NCBI GenBank assembly: GCA_016196885.1
Contig: JACPWU010000014.1
Coordinates: 1-10,429 of the forward strand
Source of the DNA: Chlamydiota bacterium
GTDB lineage: Bacteria > Auribacterota > JACPWU01
Length of the DNA stretch: 10,429 nucleotides
Direction: 5' to 3'
The position numbers and the translations under genes were made by a program. Within the stretch, counting starts at the first letter, position 1. Each line of letters starts with the position of its first letter. Under the pieces are notes generated by a model. It was not told the DNA's origin, did no database searches, and worked only from the letters and a program-made list of their open reading frames with translations. Positions 1 through 10,429 of the stretch are shown here, in pieces.

Positions 1-3000
1 AAGGGCATTGAGCCGTCGTCTCGTCTCATGGTTTCTGTGGCGACGGTGAGGGCGGTCGAGCCTAATGTTTTGACGATGAAGTCTGCTCTTGTGGGGGTTC
101 CTCCAAAGGCGGTGTTCACAAGCCCTGTTCCGATGGTGGCTGTAACCACCCCCACTGTTCCCCCAATTTCTTCTGAGACGGTGTTGAACGCGACACTGGT
201 CAGAATGGGTTTTACAATTTGTTTCATGATGCTGAAGTTGTCCAGGCTAGGTAAGCCTGCCCCAGGGAATATTCCAGAGCCGATCCCTGCCGCTAGGCCA
301 CTGACCAATGCTCCTTTGAGGGCGTCCATGGGTTTTGCTCCCATGGCGATGGATGTTAAGAAGCTCGATGCAAATGCTGTGATCCCTGTTGCTAGGGCTG
401 TTGCAGCGGTGGCGCCTAGTGCGAAGGATGTGGTGAGCATGGTTGAGATCCCCGCTGTGACGGGGGCGAGGATGATTCCAAGTGCGATCGAGATCGCAGG
501 CATGAGAAATTTCTTGAGGAATCCCCCGCTGGATTTTACTTTTTCACTCGTCATCTCACGGTGTTCATCTATTAGGACATTGTTAGCGCCATATTCAGGA
601 TGAGCCTCATAGGTGCGACTGATTTTGGAGCCTTTGACTTTGGTGTGTTCGGTTTCTTTATAGTAGTTGAGCAGTCCCTTGTCGTCTACGGTTCCAGCTC
701 GGTCTATGGTTGTGGAATATTTCTTAATCCCCATTCCCTTTTCGGATGTTTCTTTGTGGAAGTTGACGGTGTTTCCGACTTTGTCGAACGTGACGTTTTC
801 CAATTTGTCGTGATAGGAGTAAATTGTTTTGTTGCCTGACTTTAGGATTTTGTTTTCTTCGGATGCGATGATTCGGTTCTTGGAGTCGTATTTCACTACG
901 CCATTGGCAACGTATGTTCCTTTACCCTTTACTGTTTTGCTTCCTTGTGATGTTTCAATCGTTGTGGGCTCAGTGTCGTGGATGGAATAGGTATACGTTC
1001 TATTTTTTGCGTCGTATTTGTAGCTTTCGGTTCTGACGACTAATCCTCTCCCATTTGTTTCGGTGATGTTTTCGATGCCGTAGCGGCCAAGTTTCATGTC
1101 GACGTGGTGACCGGTGACGAGGTTGTCTATTTTGATGGTGTTGCCTTTGAGGACAGCTTCGGCGAGTTTGTTTCCGTTTTCGTCCTGGACCCAGGCACGG
1201 TTACCGGAGAATTTAACGACTAGATTCTTCGCTTCGCTCAGAATGACAGCATTTCCTTGACTCTTGACACTTGCTACTTGACTCTTTATTTTCTCCAATT
1301 CTTGTTTAGCTATTTCAAGGGCTTTGAGTGCCGCTTGTTTTGCGGCCTGTGTTGTTGCTTGAAGAAGTGCGAGTTTGGCTTGAGCTACTTTGACTTGGGC
1401 TTGAGCTATTTTTCTCTCTCCTTCGGCTTTGGCTCTTTCGGCTGTGCTCTTGGCTTGTTGTATTTTAGTTTGCGCTTGTTGCAGAGCTTGCTGAGCGGTT
1501 CGCAGGGCTTGTTGGGCGAGTGATTTAGCTTGTGATGCTGTTTGTTGGGCTTTGGAGATTTGTATGGCTGCTTGTTGTTTTATTTTCTCTGCCTGCTTTA
1601 AGAGTTCTTGTGTGACCTGTTTCTTATAGATGCTCATCGCTTTGGAGGCTGCCTTTTGCGCATTTCGAGCCTGGTCTTGGGCACGTCTGGCTTGTTCTTC
1701 TGCTTCTTTTATTTGCGCTGCAAGTCTAGGGCCATATTTGAAGGACTGCTGGGTTCCGTAGGCATCAAGGGTAATGATGTAGTCAGGATGCGATATTTCC
1801 TCTTTTTCAAGTGCTCCGCTTGATGAGTAAGTATAGGTGTGATGTGCGATGTCTCCTTTTTCATCAGGGATTTCTTTCCAGGCAAGTTGTCCTTGGTGAT
1901 TATACCCTTGCGTGATATTGTTGGTTCCACTCTTACCTTCTGTGTGGTTGTTCCAACTTTCTTTTAGTTGAGTGGCTCTGCCTGCGTGATCAAAGTCTAG
2001 GACATGTGTAGTGGTCGTTTGGTTGAATGATTTTCCTTCTGCGTTGGTTCCCCATGTGTGGCTGGTCCATTTTGTCATTCTGTTTTGTGCATCGTATTGT
2101 ATGTTTGTTCGATGTTCTGTGTTAGATGTACGATGTCCGTTTGATAAGTGGTCTTCTGTGGTTTGTTCATAGGAACTGACTCTTCCTTGTTCGTCAAAGC
2201 TGGTTGAAGTTCTATCTGTGATGTGTTTTCCTAGACTGTCTTTCTCTATTCTTTTGAATGAGATCTTTCGCCCGAGCTCATCATATATGATGTTTGTTTC
2301 TGTTGATTGATACGATCCACCGTTTGATCTTGTTCCTTCTTCTGCAGTAGATGTGGTTTCTCCTAAGGCATTAAAGGTTTGTGAACGCGAGAATGAGTAT
2401 GAACCGCTGGCATTTGAGTGACCGGATTCATTAAACGATGTGATGTTTCCATAGTTGTCATAAGAGATGTTTGTCTTTTGAGATTTTATGACTTCACCTG
2501 TGGATAGTGTTGTTTTGCTTTTGTCTCCTGTTAGGCGCCCCGCTTCATCGTAGCTTTGGTTCAAGATTTCTTTTGTTTCTTGATGGATGAGGTTCAATCC
2601 CTCCGAGCGACTTTCTATGGCTCCTACCTGAAGACCTAGAATGGAGTATTGAAGACTGCTTACTTCTTTTAGATTAATCGATTCTTCATTTCCTACCTTT
2701 GTTTGTTGGAGCTCTTGATAAGCTTGTAATTGTCCGAGTTTGTTATAGATTGCATCGCTGAATTTAATTTCTGTTGTTTTGGTCGGATGCCCTTCTATTT
2801 CTTCTGTGATGATTTGTATGGAGCTTATGAGTTGGTTGAAGAGGTTTTCAAACACTATGCCCATGGGGCCCCTAGGCGTGTTTTGGCATTCATTCGCTTT
2901 TTGAGTCCATGACAAGTTCTCTTGAAGTTCTGCTAAATTTTGCACGGGAGTTTGAAGAATACGCTGCATTTGTACTTGGGCTTGCGCTTCTATGGGGATG

Positions 3001-3050
3001 GATAAAAAGATCTGTAGCGTTGCAAGAACACTGGATAGGATTTTAATCAT
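1..3050 (-). CDS. Secreted YD-repeat (Rhs/teneurin-type) protein. The 3' end is truncated by the window edge; codons occupy 3..3050, so at least 1016 aa.
   Basis: Manual reverse-strand translation from ATG at 3050..3048 gives an uninterrupted frame to position 3. A G-run Shine-Dalgarno-like GGGGGG lies a few nt upstream. The ORF is absent from the supplied track, presumably because it has no in-window stop. The N-terminus MIKILSSVLATLQIFLSIPIEAQAQ looks like a signal peptide. YD-type motifs recur: SYDEAGRL, SYDNYGNI, IYDELGRK, SFDEQGRV, QYDAQNRM, DFDHAGRA, then KYDAKNRT, KYDSKNRI, TFDKVGNT. An Ala/Gln/Lys-rich coiled-coil-like block is encoded at about 1260-1725. A Gly/Ala-rich hydrophobic block (AISIALGIILAPVTAGISTML...GLAAGIGSGIFPGAG) is encoded at about 3-520. 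The + strand ORFs in this interval are low-complexity shadows. Confidence 0.8.
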   Translation of the reverse strand, partial: MIKILSSVLATLQIFLSIPIEAQAQVQMQRILQTPVQNLAELQENLSWTQKANECQNTPRGPMGIVFENLFNQLISSIQIITEEIEGHPTKTTEIKFSDAIYNKLGQLQAYQELQQTKVGNEESINLKEVSSLQYSILGLQVGAIESRSEGLNLIHQETKEILNQSYDEAGRLTGDKSKTTLSTGEVIKSQKTNISYDNYGNITSFNESGHSNASGSYSFSRSQTFNALGETTSTAEEGTRSNGGSYQSTETNIIYDELGRKISFKRIEKDSLGKHITDRTSTSFDEQGRVSSYEQTTEDHLSNGHRTSNTEHRTNIQYDAQNRMTKWTSHTWGTNAEGKSFNQTTTTHVLDFDHAGRATQLKESWNNHTEGKSGTNNITQGYNHQGQLAWKEIPDEKGDIAHHTYTYSSSGALEKEEISHPDYIITLDAYGTQQSFKYGPRLAAQIKEAEEQARRAQDQARNAQKAASKAMSIYKKQVTQELLKQAEKIKQQAAIQISKAQQTASQAKSLAQQALRTAQQALQQAQTKIQQAKSTAERAKAEGERKIAQAQVKVAQAKLALLQATTQAAKQAALKALEIAKQELEKIKSQVASVKSQGNAVILSEAKNLVVKFSGNRAWVQDENGNKLAEAVLKGNTIKIDNLVTGHHVDMKLGRYGIENITETNGRGLVVRTESYKYDAKNRTYTYSIHDTEPTTIETSQGSKTVKGKGTYVANGVVKYDSKNRIIASEENKILKSGNKTIYSYHDKLENVTFDKVGNTVNFHKETSEKGMGIKKYSTTIDRAGTVDDKGLLNYYKETEHTKVKGSKISRTYEAHPEYGANNVLIDEHREMTSEKVKSSGGFLKKFLMPAISIALGIILAPVTAGISTMLTTSFALGATAATALATGITAFASSFLTSIAMGAKPMDALKGALVSGLAAGIGSGIFPGAGLPSLDNFSIMKQIVKPILTSVAFNTVSEEIGGTVGVVTATIGTGLVNTAFGGTPTRADFIVKTLGSTALTVATETMRRDDGSMP

Positions 3051-3113
3051 TTGCCCCCCATCAACCAGACTGGCTTGGATTGTACCACTTGGAGGGAGAA
3101 GTATCTAAATCTT

Positions 3114-3625: not shown

Positions 3626-3654
3626 ATTCTATCATACTGTTTTTCCGTTCTCAA
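3626..3654 (-). promoter_or_regulatory. Candidate sigma70-type promoter for the toxin-antitoxin pair; the transcript may be leaderless
   Basis: Minus strand reads TTGAGA (3654..3649), a 17-nt spacer, then TGaTAGAAT (extended -10, hexamer 3631..3626). Six nt later comes the antitoxin ATG at 3619. The -35 overlaps the stop codon of the upstream recombinase. No Shine-Dalgarno is visible before the ATG. Confidence 0.3.
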
Positions 3655-4550
3655 ATTTTTTTTGGCTCCCCTTTTTCCCTTGGATGACATTTAGCATGAA
3701 CTTCTTTTAAGTCCATGATGGTGAGTTTTAAGTAGGGTTCCAAGCTTGAGAGTTTGGCGTGGCCTAGGAGCTCTTTGATGTAGTAGGGGTTTGCATGATT
3801 GCGGATCATGCCTGTGGCGCAGCTTCTTCTAAAAACATGCGGGGTGACGGGCCCTTCGATTCTTGCCTTGAACGCTGCTCTTCGGATGAGCATTCTTAAG
3901 CTTTCTCCTCCTAGTCTGGTTCCTCTGTGTGTTAAAAATAATGCTTTTTCTTGGGTGTTTCCTTGGGTGAGAATGGGTCTTATTCCTTTGAGGTAGTTTT
4001 CTAGCACTTGACACGCTGTTTTTCCAATGGGGACGACTCTGTCTTTTCCTCCTTTGCCCCTCATGATGCGGCAGTATCCTTCTTGGATGTCTATGTCCTT
4101 TAGGTCTAGGTTCAATAGCTCTTGTTTTCTTACCCCTGTGGTGTAAAGAAGTTCTAGGATGCTTCTATCTCGGTAGCCTAATAAGTGATGAGGATCCGGG
4201 GCCACTAAGATTTTTCGGATGATTTGATCAGGTAAGGTAAGACGGGGTAAGGTTTTGGGTTCTTTGATGTATTCTATTTTAGGCTCTAGTGCGATCAGTC
4301 CCTCATTCTTGAGACATTTAAAGTAGCCTTTTAGAATGGCGCTTACGATGTTGATGGTTCTTGCTTTGTAGGTTTTGAGCGTTTTCCGGTGCGCCTGGAT
4401 ATGGTGTTGTACGATTGCATCTATTCCAGAGATTCCCTGCGAGATCCCCCATTCAATGAACTTTGTGAGATGCCATAGATATGTTTCCTGCGTCCTAGGA
4501 CTGAAGTTTTTTCGATCCATCCACGCTCGGTACTTTTCTATGTGCCACAT
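3651..4550 (-). CDS. XerC/XerD-family tyrosine recombinase (299 aa), downstream member of a tandem pair
   Basis: N-terminal SAM-like core-binding region (FSPRTQETYLWHLTKFIEW). Catalytic signature is present: ELLYTTGVRKQEL (Arg I), GKGGKDRVVPIG (Lys), HVFRRSCAT (His-x-x-Arg), ELLGHAKLSSLEPYLK (His/Tyr nucleophile). The Xer-typical C-terminal tail is HAKCHPRE. GAGGGAAAG lies upstream of the ATG, and the gene starts 11 nt after the preceding recombinase's stop. Confidence 0.9.
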   Translation of the reverse strand: MWHIEKYRAWMDRKNFSPRTQETYLWHLTKFIEWGISQGISGIDAIVQHHIQAHRKTLKTYKARTINIVSAILKGYFKCLKNEGLIALEPKIEYIKEPKTLPRLTLPDQIIRKILVAPDPHHLLGYRDRSILELLYTTGVRKQELLNLDLKDIDIQEGYCRIMRGKGGKDRVVPIGKTACQVLENYLKGIRPILTQGNTQEKALFLTHRGTRLGGESLRMLIRRAAFKARIEGPVTPHVFRRSCATGMIRNHANPYYIKELLGHAKLSSLEPYLKLTIMDLKEVHAKCHPREKGEPKKI

Positions 4551-4561
4551 TTTCTTTCCCT

Positions 4562-5506
4562 CTATAGTTTTTTAATCTTTTGAACCTTTGATCTTTTCTT
4601 TTCCCTTGGATGTGTTCTTGTATGCTCTTTTTTTAAGTCTTTACCCGCTATTTTGAGGTATCGCTCCAGGCTCCCTAAGTCAGAGTGGCCTAAAAGCTCT
4701 TTGACGTAGTAAGGATGTGCGTTGTTGCGTAAGAGATGTGTCGCAAAGGTGCGTCTGAAAGTGTGCGCGGAGACAGGTTTTGCAAGGGCTAGCCTTTGGG
4801 CCATTTCTCTCACGATTTGATTGATTCGGCAATGAGATATTCTACGATGATGGCTTGAGATGAATAAGGCCGATTCGTCTTTTTCTTGAATGAGCTCTTG
4901 CCTTGCATTTTTGAGATAGTCTCTTAAAGGATGGGTCGCTTTCCTCCCCAACGGTTGTATTCTGTCTTTGGCTCCTTTGCCCCCTTGTATTCTTATAAAA
5001 CCTCCTTCGATGTCTATGTCTTCCATGTCCAGTCCCACCAGCTCACTTAAGCGCACTCCCGTGGAGTACATGAGCTCCATGATCGCTCGATTACGCAAAC
5101 CCAATATGCTTCTGTCCCATCCTTCAATCATTCGAGTGATTTCTTCTTCCGTTAAGATTTCCTTTACGATTCGATGCTTCACGAGACGGGGTATCAAAAG
5201 TGATTCAGATGGGTTGATGAGGAGCTGATGCGTTTTTTCTAAATGTTCTAGGAACCGTTTGATTCCTCTGAGGTAATGCTGCCGAGTCTCAGGTGAGTAT
5301 TCCTTTTCTTTTGAGCGTTCATCAAAGTCCTTTTGATATTCTTTTAAACGCTCCGGTGTGATCTGTCCCGGATGCTCAATCCCTTTCAAAATGAGCCAGT
5401 CCGTAAAATATCTTATGGGGCGTAGATAAGTTTTTAGCGTCGCTTGAGAGCGGTTTAGTTCTCTCAGGCGCTTCTCAAAGCCAAGCAGTGCCTCTTCAAA
5501 CTTCAT
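4562..5506 (-). CDS. XerC/XerD-family tyrosine recombinase (314 aa), upstream member of a tandem pair
   Basis: Same architecture as its neighbour: RSQATLKTYLRPIRYFTDWL, MELMYSTGVRLSEL, GGKGAKDRIQPLG, HTFRRTFATHLL, ELLGHSDLGSLERYLK, tail HTRTHPRE. It is clearly paralogous to the 299-aa neighbour; the C-terminal 40 aa are highly similar. AGGAG lies 9 nt upstream of the ATG. Confidence 0.9.
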   Translation of the reverse strand: MKFEEALLGFEKRLRELNRSQATLKTYLRPIRYFTDWLILKGIEHPGQITPERLKEYQKDFDERSKEKEYSPETRQHYLRGIKRFLEHLEKTHQLLINPSESLLIPRLVKHRIVKEILTEEEITRMIEGWDRSILGLRNRAIMELMYSTGVRLSELVGLDMEDIDIEGGFIRIQGGKGAKDRIQPLGRKATHPLRDYLKNARQELIQEKDESALFISSHHRRISHCRINQIVREMAQRLALAKPVSAHTFRRTFATHLLRNNAHPYYVKELLGHSDLGSLERYLKIAGKDLKKEHTRTHPREKKRSKVQKIKKL

Positions 5507-5545: not shown

Positions 5546-5646
5546 TCACGAAGTCACGAAGTTGGCTTTTTTGGATGTAAGTTCTTCCGTCTCACTTAAT
5601 AAACTTCGTGAAAAATTTTCACGAAGTTTCACGAGGTTTCACGAAC
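5546..5646. repeat. Cluster of six TCACGAAG-type motifs including a 29-bp palindrome (candidate iterons, protein-binding sites or terminator)
   Basis: Tandem TCACGAAG-TCACGAAG at 5546-5561. An inverted copy ACTTCGTGA at 5603-5611. Three direct copies phased at 10 bp at 5617-5646: TTTCACGAAG, TTTCACGAGG, TTTCACGAAC. The palindrome AAACTTCGTGAAAA-A-TTTTCACGAAGTTT (5601-5629) spans the primase stop codon (5619-5621). The cluster lies between the replication gene and the recombinase pair. Confidence 0.65.
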
Positions 5647-8357
5647 TTTGTGCTCAAGGTTAAAATTCTATGAGTTTGTCCCGCAGGGACTATCCCTTCG
5701 GGGACTATAAGATCTTGTCCCGTGGGGACTATAAGATCTTGTCCCGTGGGGACTATAAGATCTTGTAAAATTTTGTAGCGGATTAAACTCCCCTGCCTTC
5801 CACCTAAAGCAATCACATATTCCAAATCCACCAGTTCCTTAAGATAAGTCCTAACCTGATAGTCTGTCCAAAGAAGCGTTTCCCTGATTTCACGTCTCGT
5901 GAAGATGATTTTTCCCGCGGGTCTTCCCTCTAATATTTTCGCCTCTTTCATTTTTTCAAGATGATGGAGCAGTGTCTCTCCTGGCTCGGAGAGTTCTTGT
6001 AGATTCTGTGATAGAAGTTTCTCGGCTAGACGATTGGCAAGTGCGATGTCACTCTTTTCAGTTTCAATCACTTTGATGATCTTTCCATTGTGTTCTATTT
6101 CTTTCACGGGCCGTTGGAACTGATGAATGAAGGTGATGGCCTTCACGACAGAAAGATATTTTGGATGGTCACGCCTCGCCATTAAGGCCTTCATCGACCA
6201 AGAGAGTTCTATCTCTTTTGGGATAACGACTTCTATCGCTTGAAGAAGTCTTTGAAAGTTTTGATGGGCTTTTACAATTTCACTTTGCTCTAGCTTCTTC
6301 AATAATCCCTCCAGGCTTTCACTTTCTCTTTGGAGAGCTAATATCTTTTCTGTTTGTTCTCTCGTTTCATCCATGCTGACTGTCAGAAAGCGACTTTTTG
6401 TCTCTTGATCTTGCTTGGGCTGTGTCGTGCTTTTCATCACCGCTGTGGGGCCTAGTACTTCATTGGTCATTGTGGTCATTTTTCCTGTGTGTGGGTCCCG
6501 GATGGTGGATTCTATGACGATTTTTTTGGAGCTGATGAGACTGCGTATGGGGTAGCTTGCATCTTCTGCCCCTGTTTCTTCTTCTATCGCCAAGACTTTA
6601 TGGACCATGCTTAAAGCGTCTTTATAGAAGAGGGCTTGCTTGGTGAGACTGGTGAGCTTGATTAAATCTTCTTCGGGACAGAGTGAAAGTACTTTATCCT
6701 GTAGGATGCTTTTCCCTGCTCCACTGCCAGATAAGATGAGTACGCTTAAGGGGTCGCTCATCTTGCGTGAACTCATAGATAAATAGAGAAGCAGTTTGTT
6801 CGTGTCTTCTCCGACAAGGCCCAGTGTGGAGAGGTCTTGCGTGATTCTTTCGGTGAGCTTGGGATCTTTCGCCAATCTCAATGCTTCTTTTTCTTCTTGT
6901 TCTGTTATTCTGTGGACCATCGACTGTCGACTATGGACTTTCTTTAAGTATTCCTGGCACTCGATAATCAGTTTTTCAATATCTTGCTCAATTAAATCCG
7001 CTTCTACGCTGTAGAAGAGCGCTATCTCTCGCGTAAGGTAGTTCCTCGCTCTGGAGTTGTAGAGGTCTATGGTGTCGATCGTGAAGCGGTGATTACTGAT
7101 CGCCTTGATGTTTGCTTTTAGGTGACGAGCACTATTTTGTTCTATTCCTCTGAGTTCGTAGGTGCGGCTTGTGTACTGGACACAGAAACCATCTTCGATG
7201 AGTCGTCTCTCATCCCTCCTCCATCGTCCGTCGTCCCTCTTGAGACTCACCAAGCGGATTTCTGGATATAAGATTTTCTCCATCTCTTCTTTTGTATGCT
7301 TCTTTAAAAAACTATTGGGGTCTTCACCGTCTGGTAGGTTAGCGATTCTTGTGGGGGTCCCTAATTCTTCAAGTTTTTCTTTTAATCTCAAAGCCCCACT
7401 CTTCCCCGCTTCATCCCCGTCCATCAATAAAATAATCTGTGAGGTGTTGTTTCGCTTAAAGCCCATGAGATGATCTGATGTGAGCCCATTCAATCCATAA
7501 AGGGGAATGGTGTTCTTGAACCCCGCTTGATAAAGTGAGAGTGAGTCGATGATGGATTCTGTGAGGATGATTTCGGGATAAAGTTTTAAGGAGGGACCAT
7601 TGAATAAGCCTCGATGAGGGCCTTTTAAGTATAGATGATTTGCCCCTTGCCCCTGGAGTCTCCTTCCATAGAAGGAGACAACCCGTCCCTCTTCATCTAA
7701 TAACGGAAACACAACGCATCCTTCAAAAAATTCTCGGTTGGCGCTAGTCAGAATGCCTAACCCCCTTAAAGCATCCCCATATTCCCCCTCTTCAGTCACT
7801 GTCTTAAAGATTGTCCCATTCGAGTATCCGATTCTAAAGATTTCGTAAAGCTTGGGGTCGATAAGACCCCTGATTTCTGATAAATAATTCCTCGCCCTTA
7901 AGTCATCATGGAACGTGTGTTGATAGTATTCACAAGTCTTGTCGAGCAACCTTTGATGTAGAACCGTTGGGAGTGTTTTTCTGACTTCTGCCCTAAAGGA
8001 CTGCTCCGCTGTCTTCTGACTTCTGTCTTCTGATTCTTTCAGCCTTCTAATCGCTTCTCCCGTCTCCACCCCTTCCTTCTTCATTACATAATCAATGACA
8101 CTTCCCCCAAGACCACACCCAAAACAGTTCCATAGCCAGATCCCACCCTCGACTTGCTTGACATTGAAGCTGGGGTTTGTTTCCTCATGCAGTGGACACA
8201 GGGCTACCCATCCATTCCCGCTTTTCTTGAAAGAGATTCCAAGGTTGGATAAATATTCAGTGAGGTCTCGTCGCTTTAGCTCTTCAAGATCATTGTGATG
8301 ATCTACAATCTTAATGATTGGATGTGTCCCGTTATGGCGTTTGGCAAGCCCCAACAT
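5619..8357 (-). CDS. Multidomain replication protein (912 aa): CHC2 zinc finger + DnaG-type primase/Toprim + P-loop NTPase (helicase-like) + C-terminal winged-helix
   Basis: Zinc finger CPLHEETNPSF...NCFGCGLGG (C54, H57, C78, C81). DnaG core motifs RNYLSEIRGL..FRIGYS and FEGCVVFPLLDEEGRVVSFYGRRL. Toprim motifs IILTESIIDS (E267) and LLMDGDEAG (D313/D315). Walker A LSGSGAGKS (543-550), Walker B-like VLAIEEE (588-594), then a KSTT / SRFLTV pattern resembling SF3/P4-alpha-type helicases. A wHTH-like segment REIRETLLWTDYQVRTYLKELVDLEYVIALGG lies near the C-terminus. The ATG at 8357 is preceded by AAGGGGGA. Confidence 0.85.
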   Translation of the reverse strand: MLGLAKRHNGTHPIIKIVDHHNDLEELKRRDLTEYLSNLGISFKKSGNGWVALCPLHEETNPSFNVKQVEGGIWLWNCFGCGLGGSVIDYVMKKEGVETGEAIRRLKESEDRSQKTAEQSFRAEVRKTLPTVLHQRLLDKTCEYYQHTFHDDLRARNYLSEIRGLIDPKLYEIFRIGYSNGTIFKTVTEEGEYGDALRGLGILTSANREFFEGCVVFPLLDEEGRVVSFYGRRLQGQGANHLYLKGPHRGLFNGPSLKLYPEIILTESIIDSLSLYQAGFKNTIPLYGLNGLTSDHLMGFKRNNTSQIILLMDGDEAGKSGALRLKEKLEELGTPTRIANLPDGEDPNSFLKKHTKEEMEKILYPEIRLVSLKRDDGRWRRDERRLIEDGFCVQYTSRTYELRGIEQNSARHLKANIKAISNHRFTIDTIDLYNSRARNYLTREIALFYSVEADLIEQDIEKLIIECQEYLKKVHSRQSMVHRITEQEEKEALRLAKDPKLTERITQDLSTLGLVGEDTNKLLLYLSMSSRKMSDPLSVLILSGSGAGKSILQDKVLSLCPEEDLIKLTSLTKQALFYKDALSMVHKVLAIEEETGAEDASYPIRSLISSKKIVIESTIRDPHTGKMTTMTNEVLGPTAVMKSTTQPKQDQETKSRFLTVSMDETREQTEKILALQRESESLEGLLKKLEQSEIVKAHQNFQRLLQAIEVVIPKEIELSWSMKALMARRDHPKYLSVVKAITFIHQFQRPVKEIEHNGKIIKVIETEKSDIALANRLAEKLLSQNLQELSEPGETLLHHLEKMKEAKILEGRPAGKIIFTRREIRETLLWTDYQVRTYLKELVDLEYVIALGGRQGSLIRYKILQDLIVPTGQDLIVPTGQDLIVPEGIVPAGQTHRILTLSTKFVKPRETS
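5678..5766. repeat. About 3.5 tandem copies of a 24-bp unit GGGGACTATAAGATCTTGTCCCGT (candidate iterons), embedded in frame in the 3' end of the replication gene
   Basis: Perfect copies at 5700-5723 and 5724-5747, a 19-bp partial copy at 5748-5766, and a degenerate copy at 5678-5699. Each unit carries an internal inverted repeat GGGAC...GTCCC around the palindrome AAGATCTT, which contains GATC. The repeats translate as QDLIVPTG repeats in the C-terminal tail of the 912-aa protein. Confidence 0.85.
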
Positions 8358-8643
8358 ATTGTCCCCCTTTTCTTAGTCTTAGTCCGTTTTGTGGTGAGTC
8401 TGTCTTTTCCCTGATGAGTGCGTACATCCTGTCCCTCAGTTCACTCATCGCTACCTTCAATTGATAAACATTGGCCTGGGCCTTGCCATGTTTATACTCC
8501 TCCTTCAACCCTTCAATGGATGTCCCTTCAAATTCAAACACCACCGTTCTCTTCCCATTGGCCTCCATCCAAAGGTTCACGAGTGTCATCCCCCTGGATA
8601 AAAGCCACGCTCCTTCATATAAATCATTCGTGAGTAGTCTCAT
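8332..8643 (-). CDS. DUF5659-like small protein (103 aa)
   Basis: The pattern TNDLYEGAWLLSRGMTLVNL....GKRTVVFEFEG....LKEEY...AQANVYQLKVAMSELRDRMY matches my recollection of the DUF5659 family, common in phages and mobile elements (t-DLylAayL..G..l......k..F.F......l...f....vd...f......lk). AAAGGA lies upstream of the ATG. The 3' end overlaps the primase start by 26 nt. Confidence 0.5.
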   Translation of the reverse strand: MRLLTNDLYEGAWLLSRGMTLVNLWMEANGKRTVVFEFEGTSIEGLKEEYKHGKAQANVYQLKVAMSELRDRMYALIREKTDSPQNGLRLRKGGQYVGACQTP

Positions 8644-8841: not shown

Positions 8842-8914
8842 GCTACATTTTTATGTTTATATGCTACATTTGGCGTAGCTATTCGTCAAGGGATTTCTAT
8901 ATGATTGTTATAAT
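8842..8914. promoter_or_regulatory. Divergent promoter/operator region between the XRE gene and the leftward replication operon
   Basis: Direct repeats GCTACATTT at 8842-8850 and 8863-8871, 21 bp apart. The second forms the inverted repeat GCTAC-ATTTGGC-GTAGC (8863-8879). Leftward promoter candidate: TTGACG (8889..8884), 17 nt, TAGCAT (8866..8861), with its -10 overlapped by the repeat. Rightward extended -10 TGTTATAAT at 8906-8914 lies 7 nt before the ATG at 8922. Confidence 0.4.
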
Positions 8915-8921
8915 TCTTTGC

Positions 8922-9335
8922 ATGAGACACATGACATCAACGATAAAAGATTTCGGAAAACGATTGGCAGAGATCCGTAAAGCTAGGGGACTTAGTCAGA
9001 GAGACCTCGCTCGGGAGTTGGGGATTTCCAATCGAATGGTTGCATACTATGAGGCTCAAACCCAATACGTTCCCTCCAATCTCTTAATCCCTTTGACAAA
9101 AATTCTAAAAATTCCTGTGGAAGAACTTTTAGGAGTTAAGAACTTTAAGGAATATATTAATCCCCAGGCAAAGAGCCTCTGGAAAAAATTAAGAAAGGCA
9201 GAGCTCCTTCCAAAAAAAGATCAAAAAGCCTTGTTGGATCATTTGGAAGCTCTTCTCCAAAGAGTCCCTCAATCTGAACCCTCCAAAATCCCGTCTCTTC
9301 ATAAAGCAGCTCAACAAAAAATAAAGGTTGGATAA
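8922..9335 (+). CDS. XRE-family helix-turn-helix transcriptional regulator (about 137 aa; the start could instead be 8931)
   Basis: Canonical HTH_3 motif IKDFGKRLAEIRKARGLSQRDLARELGISNRMVAYYEAQTQYVPSNLLIPLTKILKIPVEELLG. The track start at 8853 adds an implausible hydrophobic or aromatic leader (MFICYIWRSYSS...) that overlaps the promoter/operator region. I prefer ATG 8922 or 8931. Confidence 0.8.
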   Translation: MRHMTSTIKDFGKRLAEIRKARGLSQRDLARELGISNRMVAYYEAQTQYVPSNLLIPLTKILKIPVEELLGVKNFKEYINPQAKSLWKKLRKAELLPKKDQKALLDHLEALLQRVPQSEPSKIPSLHKAAQQKIKVG

Positions 9336-9577
9336 TAATAAGCAGGAATCACCCGTCCCAAAATAATCTCCGCAATATTTCCCCAATCACATCCGCTCGC
9401 CACTTTTTTTCTGCCCCCGCAAAATCCCCTCTTAGCCCAGGGTCTGTGATCCAGTCCATGCCATTGAGCTTTTAGCACCTGCCCTATCACTTGTAATGTT
9501 TTATAAAGTTTATAAGGTCTTATTTTATCGGGTGCGATGATGGCCTGGCCTAAAGCTCCGCAACGTCAAGCCCACAA

Positions 9578-9605
9578 GGGGCGCATAATGCGCATTATGC
9601 GACAT
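9578..9605. other. dif-like 28-bp site with XerC-type arms on both sides (C/C palindrome)
   Basis: GGGGCGCATAA-TGCGCA-TTATGCGACAT compared with E. coli dif GGTGCGCATAA-TGTATA-TTATGTTAAAT. The left arm matches 10 of 11, the spacer 3 of 6, and the right arm 8 of 11. The right arm is better described as an inverted copy of the left arm (CGCATAA / TTATGCG). Confidence 0.45.
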
Positions 9606-9626
9606 TGCGGGGCCAGGCCATGCTGC

Positions 9627-9654
9627 CTTTAACATAACTGAGGTTATGTTAAAC
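9627..9654. other. dif-like 28-bp site with XerD-type arms on both sides (D/D palindrome)
   Basis: CTTTAACATAA-CTGAGG-TTATGTTAAAC. The right arm matches the dif XerD half-site TTATGTTAAAT at 10 of 11 positions. The left arm is its inverted copy. The spacer is 6 bp. Confidence 0.45.
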
Positions 9655-10148
9655 TCTGACTGAGGTCAGAGTACGTCAGCTCTCCGATGTCGCATCGGAG
9701 ACATCGCACCCGGGCGAAGCCCTCTTTCCTCTTTTGCTCGACATAGCCCAAGACTCATCCCACGCCCGTGGCTCGCTTGATTTTCTCTGCTAAGAGATTT
9801 CGCTCGTTCAGTTTTAAATGCTCCGCTTTCAGTGACTCGCGACTCTAAAAAAATTCATTGGGCAACTCCAGGTAAAAAAAATTTTGGATTCGATGTGAAA
9901 GGGGTTTTTAGGAGTTAGATTTTTTCAAGATCATATTTTGTGATTTTAAATCAGATGTGTTTTTGAACAGGCGAGTCACTAACTTCACTTGTCCTAAAAA
10001 CTTTTCCGAGACAAAACTTTTAGCAAACCCTTTTGCTTTTCGTGCTTTTCCCCCGCGTGCACTCCGAGGCTTCTTTCGGAGTGTCGGCCACGTCGCTCTC
10101 TCGCTGCCACTGGCTTTGCCCTCTTCTCTCGCCTCCCCTAATCTCCTT

Positions 10149-10289
10149 TCCTTCCCCCTTCTTAATCCTATTCCTTACCACTCTCATTTTTGGGAAGTTC
10201 GAGAAGGGGCCCAAAAATGAGAGTGCACTAGGGGTGTAGAGGATAGGATGGGGGTAGGCCGATCGCAGTGAGGCCGCAAGGGGGAAGGA
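10149..10289. repeat. Long composite inverted repeat: pyrimidine-rich left arm, purine-rich right arm
   Basis: A perfect 16-bp inverted repeat, CACTCTCATTTTTGGG (10179-10194) / CCCAAAAATGAGAGTG (10210-10225), with a 15-nt loop. It is enclosed by a perfect 12-bp inverted repeat, TCCTTCCCCCTT (10149-10160) / AAGGGGGAAGGA (10278-10289). Additional imperfect pairing is possible, for example CCTATTCCTT (10167-10176) with AGAGGATAGG (10238-10247). Confidence 0.7.
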
Positions 10290-10429
10290 TCGAGGTAGGA
10301 CGGCCAGTTGCCCAGCCGCCCCCTCACAGATCCCGACGTGCGAAATTATCGCATCGGGCTCTTCAGAGATACTCGCCTACGCATTTAGGCCAGTTGTCAG
10401 AGCGTGTAGATGGCTTGTGGTTTTGTCCG
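10289..10429 (-). mobile_element. Probable 3'-terminal part of a group II intron (end of domain IV, domain V, domain VI). The intron body and reverse-transcriptase ORF would lie beyond the right edge.
   Basis: Minus strand 10361..10329 reads GAGCCCGATGCGATAATTTCGCACGTCGGGATC. It aligns with the classical domain V, for example yeast ai5-gamma GAGCCGUAUGCGAUGAAAGUCGCACGUACGGUUC. Shared features are the AGC triad, a 9-bp lower helix with compensatory changes, a 2-nt AC bulge on the 3' strand, and a 4-bp upper helix. It is followed by a domain VI-like hairpin, GAGGGGGCGGC (10325..10315) / GCCGTCCTACCTC (10304..10292), with a bulged A at 10296. That A lies 7 nt before a terminal ...GAT, so the intron would end in AY at about 10289. 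Caveats: the G of the triad faces A rather than U, and the loop is UAAUU rather than GNRA. Confidence 0.5.

Follow-up and report, generated by a model that had tools for sequence, protein, structure and literature searches.

Nested hairpins with XerC-like and XerD-like arms in elements encoding a DnaG-type primase and two Xer-like recombinases

Genes and features of the locus

The stretch of DNA analysed here, called the window below, is a whole 10.4-kb contig of 10,429 nucleotides. No terminal overlap pointing to circularity was found on this contig, and its GC-skew profile is dominated by gene orientation. The genes and the non-coding region that concern us are:

3651-4550, minus strand: Xer-like tyrosine recombinase 2, 299 aa (Xer models, about 200 bits)
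4562-5506, minus strand: Xer-like tyrosine recombinase 1, 314 aa (Pfam Phage_integrase, 7e-39)
5619-8357, minus strand: DnaG-type primase (zinc ribbon and Toprim) fused to a C-terminal P-loop domain, 912 aa
8853-9335, plus strand: HTH_3 regulator, divergent from the primase; the module begins 194 bp past its stop codon
9336-10289, no strand assigned: the contig's sole large non-coding region, alignable with positions 3966-4742 of the relative L001
9529-9712, putatively minus strand: the whole folded module (evidence: fold z-scores, compensatory changes in L001, wobbles of relatives)

The two recombinase genes lie about 4 kb from the module, as the original prediction had noted. Recombinase 1 matches the XerC, XerD and XerA models with 185-225 bits, under their equivalog cut-offs; among solved structures it is closest to XerD (1a0p), and it retains the catalytic R, K, HxxR, H and Y. 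Recombinase 2 has the XerA-like 4a8e as its best solved relative and also keeps the catalytic residues. Integron-integrase models reach 55-102 bits with these proteins, compared with about 200 bits for Xer models. Judged by sequence, both recombinases are Xer-like with intact catalytic residues. The 912-aa primase served as the family marker for finding relatives (numbered L001 and upwards), and HTH gene and primase gene are arranged in the same way in L001, L002 and the P0003 contig.

Between the primase and recombinase genes, at 5554-5650, lies an iteron-like array of ACTTCGTGAA palindromes that is conserved across phyla. Besides the module, the non-coding region holds an A+T-rich stretch (about 9840-9960) flanked by inverted repeats and a second structured domain composed of a hairpin (10179-10225) and a stem (10149-10160/10278-10289). 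The loop motif of this second domain, GGGARGTYCGAGRAGGGRCCC, is found among the loci in L001 (duplicate record L004) and L002 only, and has no viral matches. The one near-threshold Rfam match in the window, to group II intron domains V/VI, falls at 10289-10363.

Architecture of the module and its Xer-like arms

A repeat search of the window resolved the 184 nt at 9529-9712 into a cluster of nested inverted repeats and hairpins, with the following parts (no strand assigned):

9529-9539/9702-9712: outermost closing stem, perfect 11 bp (100% complementary)
9540-9550/9611-9621: second closing stem, perfect 11 bp (100% complementary)
9529-9550: 5' halves (plus-strand coordinates) of both consecutive closing stems
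9555-9613: inner branch, with helix 9555-9567/9601-9613 (85% complementary)
9578-9605: C/C palindrome GGGGCGCATAA-TGCGCA-TTATGCGACAT, with a perfect core and a XerC-arm match
9627-9654: D/D palindrome, stem TTTAACATAAC/GTTATGTTAAA at 9628-9638/9643-9653 with a 4-nt loop
9653-9672: hairpin 3, ACTCTGAC-TGAG-GTCAGAGT, perfect stem 9653-9660/9665-9672
9681-9701: hairpin 4, TCTCCGATG-TCG-CATCGGAGA, perfect stem 9681-9689/9693-9701

Read along the minus strand, the module comprises, in order, the closing stem, hairpin 4, a branch formed by hairpin 3 and the D hairpin, a second branch that holds the C hairpin together with a small GCCC/GGGC hairpin, and again the closing stem. The original prediction described two consecutive perfect 11-bp stems enclosing perfect hairpins, two of which share the apical 8-mer ACTGAGGT. 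Both observations are correct, the 8-mer being common to the D hairpin (9637-9644) and hairpin 3 (9659-9666). The accompanying statement that G-T pairs and mismatches are absent is true of the six perfect stems but not of the helix 9555-9567/9601-9613: this helix, which encloses the C hairpin and the small hairpin GCCC-ACAAG-GGGC (9570-9582), forms a U·G pair on the minus strand at a position that is a C·A mismatch on the plus strand. Folded as RNA, the 184 nt reach -103.5 kcal/mol on the plus strand (z -10.3) and -106.4 kcal/mol on the minus strand (z -11.0), and folded as DNA -66.9 (z -11.8), with 0 of 200 shuffles folding as well. The inverted repeats are far beyond chance, at fold z-scores of about -10 to -12.

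Two of the palindromes carry arms resembling those of dif. The left arm of the C/C palindrome, GGGGCGCATAA (9578-9588), matches the XerC arm GGTGCGCATAA at 10 of 11 positions and is the sole such match in the window, where 0.06 would be expected. Its right arm TTATGCGACAT, presented earlier as a mirror image, mirrors the inner 10 bp only, and its reverse complement matches the XerC arm at 7 of 11 positions. The core is a perfect 20-bp palindrome, CGCATAATGC|GCATTATGCG, at 9582-9601 (9582-9591/9592-9601). As predicted, both arms of the D/D palindrome match the XerD arm TTATGTTAAAT at 10 of 11 positions each (0.23 matches expected). Matches of 10/11 in the window are limited to position 9578 for C and positions 9627 and 9644 for D, so arranged as to give C/C and D/D, 49 bp apart; the arm scan found no C arm and D arm on the same duplex anywhere in the window. 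Looser arm scans (2-3 mismatches) were too noisy to use, with 119 matches compared with 71 in shuffles.

The 6-bp spacers assigned to both palindromes are partly self-complementary, so that the stems reach 10 and 11 bp and the loops are in reality 0 and 4 nt. The ATAA/TTAT of the window's C and D arms face the palindrome centre, as in the dif consensus. Because these ATAA ends face the loops, the serial C and D hairpins cannot stack into a canonical C-spacer-D site. The module is not a canonical dif, cer or psi site.

Conservation in related elements

The relative L001, whose primase is 72% identical, has the same structure in the same place: the interior is collinear with that of the window, and all stems are kept despite 10-12 double changes. 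Its outer stem CGCACCCGCTGG/CCAGCGGGTGCG differs from that of the window by four double changes with pairing retained, the position of hairpin 3 is taken by a hairpin of unrelated sequence (TCACGAT...ATCGTGA), and the equivalent of hairpin 4 pairs fully only on the primase-sense strand, via G·U. The inner-branch stretch CCGCAACGTCAAGCCCACAAGGGGCG is unchanged between the two. In an alignment of five distant modules, 95.4% of cells pair, compared with 32-49% in slid controls, and double changes occur at 20 of the 59 pairs, which 0 of 500 shuffles reach.

The original prediction had proposed arm conservation in homologues as a check, and the arms pass from element to element with their sequence kept: C-type arms retain CGNATAA(T) and D-type arms A[AC]CATAA in L001, L002, L069, L038, L033, L054 and others, the remaining stems not being sequence-conserved and changing by compensation. 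This conservation spans elements derived from Chlamydiota, Desulfobacterota, Rokubacteria and metagenomes. The CGNATAA core is present in the C hairpins of L001 (GGATAAGTC|GACTTATCC) and L002 (CGCATAATCC-ACGA-GGATTATGCG); the D hairpins of these loci are TTTACCATAAT/ATTATGGTAAA and GTTGACATAAT/ATTATGTTAAC, respectively, with similar ones in L008, L074, L038 and L069. The loci contain 12 different palindromes built as X7-ATAA-loop-TTAT-X7', and the shuffles contain 0. Across modules the ATAA-to-TTAT distance is 4 to 10 nt, mostly of self-complementary sequence, and such a variable, self-complementary "spacer" would fit a hairpin better than a fixed duplex core spacer.

We define the module as a closing stem with a D-type hairpin (A[AC]CATAA), one or more variable hairpins and a C-type hairpin (CGNATAA), all on one strand of an element that encodes a DnaG-type primase-helicase and two Xer-like recombinases. 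The window contains such a C/C and D/D module on a primase-dual-Xer element. A metagenome search by sequence only, for the D-then-C arrangement, returned another element of the same primase family. The split into C/C and D/D palindromes, which the original prediction knew from no other locus, thus recurs: a C/C hairpin and a D/D hairpin within a closing stem are found across several phyla and, by these comparisons, are a hallmark of the family. ATAA-type modules were found in about 20 of the 78 family loci only; a stricter automatic module detector overlooked known modules. The purine motif GGGAGCGARGGGA comes after the D hairpin in L002 and in the further relatives looked at and is missing in the window and L001, and the Desulfobacterota motif TTTTTCTTTAACCGC is absent in the window.

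The module's place in the element varies. In L033, L054, L064, L043, L057 and L074 it lies 30-400 bp past the second recombinase gene, and the region after a recombinase gene is the usual position of attP. L074, L057 and L043 have inverted module copies on both flanks of the core genes. Desulfosarcina alkanivorans PL12 hosts a family member in two copies (L049 and L066). L073 (7444-7552) and L037 (7807-7880), whose modules likewise follow the second recombinase gene, have both arm types nested in one hairpin, which restores the order C arm, unpaired spacer, D arm. Module orientation relative to neighbouring genes varies among relatives. In L038 an oriT-like traJ-II match lies 190 bp from the module, a plausible hint of a single-stranded stage. 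L038 and L039 are the only relatives with mapped integration junctions, and their crossover (...ACTTAGG|GCAAGG...) is about 1 kb from the module. Because it falls outside the module, the module can be at most an accessory site in these two elements, and the earlier suggestion that the palindromes themselves are the crossover site gains no support from it.

The module occurs once in the window, and no dispersed copies of it were seen in PLSDB, metagenome contigs or viral contigs: PLSDB returned no match to the whole window (megablast) or to 9480-9760 (blastn), and the conserved loop 22-mer had 0 exact matches in metagenome and viral contigs. Rfam 15 gave nothing in 9529-9712 at E up to 1, STAXI and traJ-II included. 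The searches for a known RNA family and for scattered copies, both proposed with the original prediction, thus came back negative. Literature searches on the element family and on RNA-guided tyrosine recombinases gave nothing relevant.

The folded strand and the function of the module

The original prediction took a fold that works equally on both strands as an argument for a DNA-level element; as a case for a strand-neutral, duplex-level element this argument fails. The window's strands do fold near-equally (-106.4 and -103.5), but the stems of relatives show G·T wobbles on one strand only. L001 folds to -111.5 on one strand and -97.0 on the other, the five-sequence alignment has 32 G·T cells and 0 A·C cells, and internal wobbles across 11 modules are split 32 to 8 between the strands. 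Because these wobbles are one-sided, one strand, as DNA or RNA, is probably the selected form. From the wobble pairs of relatives, the folded strand in the window would be the minus strand.

Structure, compensatory conservation, strand bias, conserved arms and the genomic link to the recombinase pair are all observed, and these features support a genuine cis element that is linked to the two Xer-family recombinases and distinct from a C-spacer-D site, as the original prediction held. The reading we favour, with confidence a little short of even, is that the module is a strand-specific folded-DNA platform which binds the element's own recombinase pair and is part of its recombination region. 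The minus strand would become single-stranded at the replication fork, after transfer or by cruciform extrusion, and would then form a multi-branch junction closed by a 22-bp stem. One branch would present a XerC-arm duplex (CGCATAA) and another a XerD-arm duplex (AACATAA), and each hairpin would presumably bind one member of the recombinase pair that the element encodes. In this way the folded DNA would be the recombinase-loading part of the recombination region, like CTXφ attP(+) and integron attC; the reaction that follows binding may be integration and excision, or resolution. That the folded strand is DNA rather than RNA is likewise our inference. Several observations count against the platform as a whole: the near-equal folding of the window's two strands, the inability of the serial hairpins to stack into a C-spacer-D site, the distant crossover in L038 and L039, the inconstant module orientation, wobbles at about 12% of pairs with zero A·C, conserved single-stranded motifs (GGGAGCGARGGGA and GCCGARCG) and a junction architecture that would suit RNA, and the restriction of ATAA-type modules to a minority of family loci. 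A wobble-rich, A·C-free pattern is more characteristic of RNA than of DNA hairpins, G·T being costly in DNA.

Another possibility is a structured non-coding RNA from the minus strand, a four-way junction with single-stranded purine motifs that regulates or scaffolds element functions, the dif-like stems being secondary or a dual use of the same DNA. Its wobbles (32 G·U to 0 A·C, and 32 to 8) would be RNA-typical, its consensus is RNA-like with conserved unpaired motifs and one hairpin of variable length, and in L038 the folded strand is the sense strand directly downstream of the HTH gene. We nevertheless consider this account unlikely, if not strongly so. In addition to the empty Rfam search of the window module, other modules have no Rfam match (12 loci at gathering score, 7 loci at E up to 0.1), the window has neither a sigma-70-like promoter upstream on the minus strand nor a terminator past the module, and orientation to flanking genes differs between relatives. 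Perfect stems of 11-22 bp are unusual in bacterial RNA, and an RNA leaves unexplained why XerC-arm and XerD-arm sequences occupy two stems across phyla, why nested variants restore a full dif-like site and why the centres of C palindromes are self-complementary. A further account has duplex-only C/C and D/D sites, each for a homodimer of one recombinase (XerA/XerH/XerS-like), with the larger fold incidental. In its favour, the ATAA and TTAT of the C palindromes are 6-8 bp apart in most relatives, and the symmetry of these palindromes extends across their centre, a feature for which folding by itself gives no reason. Xer sites of the single-recombinase kind consist of two inverted arms of 10-11 bp with a spacer between them (PMC5357621). 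Such sites leave unexplained the compensatory changes in closing stems and in sequence-unrelated hairpins, and the one-sided wobbles, including those in the C arms of L057 and L074, and the D "spacers" range from 4 to 8 nt; we hold this account to be very improbable.

It is also quite improbable that the module acts as a signal for single-strand initiation (G4-oric, plasmid ssi or sso type), with hairpins on the exposed strand that the element's DnaG-type primase-helicase would recognise in order to begin the complementary or lagging strand. A cluster of strand-specific hairpins, 180-250 nt long and placed in the sole large non-coding region, by the A+T-rich stretch and near the primase operon, would suit this role, as would the return of the same primase family by a pattern-only metagenome search and the oriT-like element adjoining the module in one relative. 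However, priming does not need conserved Xer-arm stems, most relatives have the module behind the recombinase genes and not behind the primase gene, inverted copies can flank the core genes on both sides, the ACTTCGTGAA array is a better origin candidate, and a Lonsdalea plasmid has the primase and one XerC with the module missing. Finally, the intergenic position after the HTH gene and the many perfect hairpins might suggest a nest of palindromic mobile repeats (MITE/REP-like) or a terminator cluster devoid of specific function. This is hardly credible for a structure that occurs once in the window, is unmatched in PLSDB and, as far as its conserved 22-mer goes, in metagenome and viral contigs too, occupies the same syntenic position with compensatory changes in L001, and has no T-runs 3' of its stems.

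Other candidates were rejected. A true chromosomal dif would require another arm arrangement, and the region is on a small element. A telomere-resolvase-type hairpin site, suggested by the centre-symmetric C palindromes, does not agree with proteins that are Xer-like and not ResT/TelK-like. An invertible segment was discarded since inversion cannot exchange the arms of an inverted repeat, and since the window and L001 have collinear interiors.

The folded-DNA platform that we favour has partial counterparts among known systems. To our knowledge, natural tyrosine recombinase systems that act on folded single-stranded sites number two, integron attC and CTXφ-type phages, both discovered in well-studied pathogens. 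In CTXφ attP(+), dif-like arms are paired within one strand with the spacers as an internal loop (PMC4246890). The module shares with it inverted dif-like XerC and XerD arms, intra-strand pairing and, judging by the wobbles of relatives, probably a fold favoured on one strand, and L073 and L037 share its nested geometry of paired arms with the spacers as an internal loop (PMC4246890). In the window, by contrast, the C and D arms sit on two separate serial hairpins, so there is no C-spacer-D duplex and no single attP-type hairpin; the module adds a closing stem and extra hairpins to give a multi-branch junction; and the element has its own Xer-like pair and a primase-helicase, whereas CTXφ is a filamentous phage that has no recombinase gene of its own, exploits host Xer and integrates while its genome is single-stranded. 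Like attC and IntI, the module would combine an Xer-related tyrosine recombinase with a strand-specific folded site, structure is kept more than sequence, and relatives go with exchangeable cargo. However, attC forms one imperfect hairpin (R''-L''/L'-R') in which some bases are extrahelical and the central spacer stays unpaired, whereas the window's hairpin stems are perfect with no bulges, the arm sequences are conserved and two recombinases rather than one are encoded.

A dif site lies at the replication terminus, and cer and psi sites are recombined by host XerCD with accessory proteins. In dif-type sites, the XerC and XerD arms have ATAA facing the centre, and the archaeal XerA dif has inverted arms around a 6 bp spacer (PMC5357621). 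The window's arms resemble those of dif, cer, psi and pdif sites, at 10/11 to each of the E. coli XerC and XerD arms, but the window has no XerC arm, 6-8 bp centre and XerD arm on one duplex; the module's arms are C/C and D/D, and its spacers are self-complementary and vary in length among relatives. With XerA dif, XerH difH and XerS difSL the module shares paired inverted arms, a short spacer and a nearby recombinase gene (PMC5357621), and differs from them in having two distinct palindromes, presumably for two recombinases, within a conserved higher-order fold with strand-specific wobbles. STAXI (RF01728) and traJ-II (RF01760) are structured motifs by DNA-handling genes for which a role in ssDNA has been considered (PMC2864571). 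The module is likewise a structured non-coding motif near DNA-handling genes, with traJ-II beside the L038 module, but the window has no match to either of these families at E up to 1, and STAXI is a repeated pseudoknot, whereas the module is a plain-hairpin junction.

G4 oric, plasmid ssi and the sso of RCR plasmids are orientation-specific hairpin clusters of 150-300 nt, active only when single-stranded. The module is also an orientation-specific hairpin cluster of similar size; those signals have no recombinase-arm sequences, whereas the module tracks the recombinase genes in most relatives.

It is rather unlikely, in our judgement, that the family as a whole uses a dedicated folded single-strand module, with Xer arms on separate junction hairpins, as a recombination substrate or scaffold. 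If it did, single-strand-dependent tyrosine recombination would gain a third class with a new architecture, in addition to integron attC and CTXφ attP, the folded-site principle would extend to self-encoded XerC/XerD-like pairs, and it would reach a large unstudied element family in uncultured Chlamydiota, Desulfobacterota, Rokubacteria and others. If the folded strand were a transcript, it would be the first RNA to recruit Xer-type recombinases. Recognition of structured DNA by paired recombinases could be studied with short substrates from the module, namely its closing stem and its C and D hairpins, and the module could be a sequence-and-structure marker for such elements in metagenomes.

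The elements of the family are small, replicate or integrate, and encode a primase-helicase and two Xer-like recombinases, often with Rhs/YD-type toxin cargo: L038 carries an Rhs-type toxin tip and immunity genes, and the Lonsdalea plasmid carries toxin/immunity cassettes.

Setting and fold of the hairpin module

The window is the complete 10,429-bp contig of a metagenome-assembled "Chlamydiae bacterium". Its sole large non-coding region (9336-10289) holds a 184-nt hairpin cluster, here called the module, at 9529-9712.

Features of the window
3104 to 3, minus: reading frame of >1,034 codons, leaving the contig at its left end
3651-4550, minus: tyrosine recombinase, second of an adjacent pair
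4562-5506, minus: tyrosine recombinase, first of the pair
5619-8357, minus: DnaG-type primase fused to a P-loop domain
8853-9335, plus: HTH_3 regulator, divergent
within the window: ParE-like toxin-antitoxin pair
9529-9539/9702-9712: first 11-bp perfect stem
9540-9550/9611-9621: second 11-bp perfect stem
9582-9601, 9628-9653, 9653-9672 and 9681-9701: perfect hairpins

Both recombinases score ~200 bits to the XerC, XerD and XerA models and have intact catalytic residues; XerD and a XerA-like protein are their best relatives among solved structures. The top NCBIfam match of the regulator is the RstR family (CTXφ repressor), but because it scores 46.6 bits against a cut-off of 80, it is only a generic HTH_3 resemblance. 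The long left-end frame (3-3104) shows many YD-like dipeptide repeats by eye and has no Pfam match. Its end is homologous to the start of a truncated 969-aa ORF in the related locus L001, and the contig of a close relative, P0003, gives faint RHS/YD-shell matches at the equivalent place.

All repeats listed in the original prediction were found where it had placed them, including the apical 8-mer ACTGAGGT common to two hairpins. Calculated RNA fold energies of the 184-nt module are -103.5 (plus strand) and -106.4 kcal/mol (minus strand) and the DNA fold energy is -66.9 kcal/mol, with z-scores of -10.3 to -11.8 and 0 shuffles folding as well. The fold had been described as free of non-Watson-Crick contacts, which is incorrect: in the helix 9555-9567/9601-9613, the minus strand contains a U·G where the plus strand has C·A.

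The resemblance to the arms of dif stands. GGGGCGCATAA matches the E. coli XerC arm at 10 of 11 positions; the window contains no second match of this quality, and chance would give 0.06. Both arms of the D palindrome (9627-9654) match the XerD arm equally well (10/11; 0.23 expected). The proposed mirroring of the XerC-like arm on the right of the C palindrome (9578-9605) extends over the inner 10 bp and fails beyond them, and the supposed 6-bp spacers are largely self-complementary, being really stem plus a loop of 0-4 nt. Symmetry continues through the centre of the C palindromes, both in the window (9582-9601) and in relatives, among which the self-complementary centres differ (GCGC, TCGA, CATG, GGCC, CCGG, GGCGCC). 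The D hairpins, unlike the C palindromes, have ordinary, asymmetric loops.

Searching Rfam at E up to 1, a check that the original prediction had proposed, returned no known RNA family on the module, and neither the region nor the 22-mer that is its best-conserved part had a copy in PLSDB, metagenome contigs or viral contigs. By these searches, the module is neither a known RNA nor a dispersed repeat.

Conservation and strand preference among relatives

The gene order HTH, small ORF, primase, two recombinases is common to L001, the P0003 contig and a more distant locus, L002; the primases of L001 and L002 are 72% and 55% identical to that of the window. L001 has a module at the equivalent position, and it conserves the fold rather than the sequence. 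The outer stem reads CGGGTGCGATG in the window and CGCACCCGCTGG in L001, and the D hairpin TTTAACATAAC and TTTACCATAAT, in both cases with matching changes in the partner strand. The C hairpin is CGCATAATGC/GCATTATGCG in the window and GGATAAGTC/GACTTATCC in L001, the third hairpin keeps its form with a wholly different sequence, and the unpaired stretch CCGCAACGTCAAGCCCACAAGGGGCG is the same in both. In L002, the hairpins follow in the same order as in the window, with a D hairpin of GTTGACATAAT-GTG-ATTATGTTAAC that includes one G·T and a C hairpin of GTGCGCATAATCC-ACGA-GGATTATGCG.

A primase profile search of GTDB genomes returned 276 stretches. Most are contigs of 5-15 kb; among the others are copies in chromosomes, tandem arrays and an 8.6-kb molecule that is circularly permuted. 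A C-type palindrome (CGNATAA(T)...(A)TTATNCG) and a D-type hairpin (A[AC]CATAA-loop-TTATG[GT]T) lie 50-95 nt apart in about 20 of 78 loci, for example L038/L039, L069, L033, L054/L064, L043, L018, L057, L074, L008, L066, L058, L040 and L029. Read from D to C, the common layout is a long closing stem, the D hairpin, an unpaired purine motif (GGGAGCGARGGGA or similar), a variable long hairpin, the C hairpin, GCCGARCG and the closing stem. The layout is strongly supported by a five-sequence alignment, in which 95.4% of cells are paired and 20 of 59 pairs have changes on both sides; none of 500 shuffles was as good, and slid controls were only 32-49% paired. Searching JGI metagenomes by arm pattern alone (ACATAA-N2-8-TTATGTTAA-N20-50-CGCATAAT) gave 11 matches, several of them full modules, and one of the matched loci, L092, encodes the same primase family. 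The module is real, and more general than could be known from the window by itself. A family relative from a cultured bacterium, the complete circular 11.3-kb plasmid L093 of Lonsdalea populi (NZ_CP072857.1), encodes RelE/ParE, one XerC, the primase and a divergent HTH, in that order, as well as repeated HTH-SymE-toxin/immunity cassettes; a hairpin module of the ATAA type was not detected on it.

The original prediction had reasoned that the fold serves both strands equally, an argument overturned by the one-strand wobble bias of the relatives' modules. The five-sequence alignment contains 32 G·T cells and no A·C cells. Across 11 diverse modules, in-helix wobbles number 32 on the D-to-C strand versus 8 on the other, and the D-to-C strand has the lower energy in all 11, often by 10-35 kcal/mol. 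Four positions in L001 pair solely as G·U, on the primase-sense strand; the fold energies of this strand and its complement are -111.5 and -97.0 kcal/mol. In the window, L001 and L002, it is the primase-sense strand (the minus strand of the window) that runs from D to C. One strand is the selected form of the module, and the perfect stems of the window are the cleanest case of the family fold.

Placement and possible role of the module

The module lies 30-400 bp past the second recombinase gene in L033, L054, L064, L043, L057 and L074. In L074, L057 and L043, inverted copies of it flank the HTH-primase-recombinase core, a layout reminiscent of a transposon, or of the yeast 2-micron plasmid with its inverted repeats; these copies are ~400 bp long (889-1269 and 7215-7615 in L074). 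At the same position after the recombinases, L073 and L037 have a single long hairpin in which a full C arm-spacer-D arm pairs with its own inverted copy and the spacers stay unpaired in an internal loop. This is the geometry of the folded attP(+) of CTXφ (PMC4246890). The serial form of the window and this nested form look like two topologies of one device, in which a C-arm duplex and a D-arm duplex within one strand appear to be the constant.

A 6.9-kb element (7876-14760) occupies two sites of one 6.2-Mb chromosome, L038 and L039, and contains an Rhs-type tip, small ORF, module, oriT-like motif, HTH, primase and two recombinases. Its junctions read ...ACTTAGG/GCAAGG..., with the crossover inside ATACTT-AGG/GCA-AGGTAT. 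The L039 insertion is in the conserved RYYDP-coding end of an Rhs core, with ~100 bp of the core duplicated, as if a toxin tip had been swapped. Since the module is ~1 kb inside this element, the crossover in this case does not occur at the module. Several Desulfobacterota elements have the module, the motif TTTCTTTAACCGC and the likely crossover all within ~250 bp, so the attachment region may include the module as an accessory component. L038 also has a strong Rfam traJ-II match (9261-9366, plus; 69 bits, gathering score 40), an oriT-like element that contains the variant ATCATGC of a MOBP-like nick motif. It lies on the HTH-gene side of the module, 190 bp away, and is a hint that some members pass through a single-stranded stage of transfer. 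The window and the other loci scanned gave no traJ-II match.

With its C arms and D arms on separate duplexes, the module does not qualify as a dif, cer or psi site. We tentatively favour a fold, specific to one strand, in which Xer-type arms are offered to the two recombinases that the element itself encodes. By analogy, it would most likely work like CTXφ attP and attC; strict membership of either family was rejected. A structured RNA is an unlikely alternative. The proportion of wobbles (~12% of pairs) and the conserved unpaired motifs would suit it, but the surroundings of the window module showed neither a promoter nor a terminator signal, and the orientation of the module to neighbouring genes differs between relatives.

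A priming signal for the primase is less probable than an RNA. We also give little credence to the C/C and D/D palindromes acting solely as duplex sites, the least probable of these readings. The symmetry through the centre of the C palindromes would suit such sites and is not accounted for by folding alone, but the ATAA-to-TTAT distance varies from 4 to 10 nt among relatives, as would be expected of hairpin loops more than of a duplex spacer of fixed length.

Further structured elements

In the interval that separates the primase stop from the first recombinase gene, the window has an iteron-like array (5554-5650), a palindrome AAACTTCGTGAAAA-A-TTTTCACGAAGTTT with three more half-copies, which is a candidate origin or operator. 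A similar palindrome occupies the matching position of a Verrucomicrobia element (L025, 5778-5803), and that of L001 (8430-8454) shows compensatory changes. Within the 3' end of the primase frame, TATAAGATCTT occurs three times at 24-nt spacing (5706-5767), the third copy belonging to a palindrome.

A second conserved structured domain spans 10020-10290. In L001 its hairpin 10179-10225 has changed in a compensatory manner, and the loop, GGGARGTYCGAGRAGGGRCCC, is conserved; in L002 (264-284) the loop motif has the reverse orientation with respect to the primase gene. At its right end, the contig stops inside a group II intron. The 3' end of this intron (domains V/VI; 10289-10363, minus) scores 39.4 bits, just short of the gathering score (40). 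The intron sits at the exact end of a 12-bp stem (10149-10160/10278-10289), and L001 lacks an intron at the homologous point.

L083 has two tandem canonical dif-like sites (~1954-2006), e.g. ACGTCGCATAA-TATATA-TTATGTTAAGT, which have the look of a chromosomal dif into which an Xer-exploiting element has integrated; they are unrelated to the module. In L066, from Desulfosarcina alkanivorans PL12, 5873-8373 is repeated at 8371-10871 as an exact 2,501-bp tandem duplication that starts 145 bp upstream of the module and ends within the primase gene; either a recent event or an artefact of assembly could account for it.
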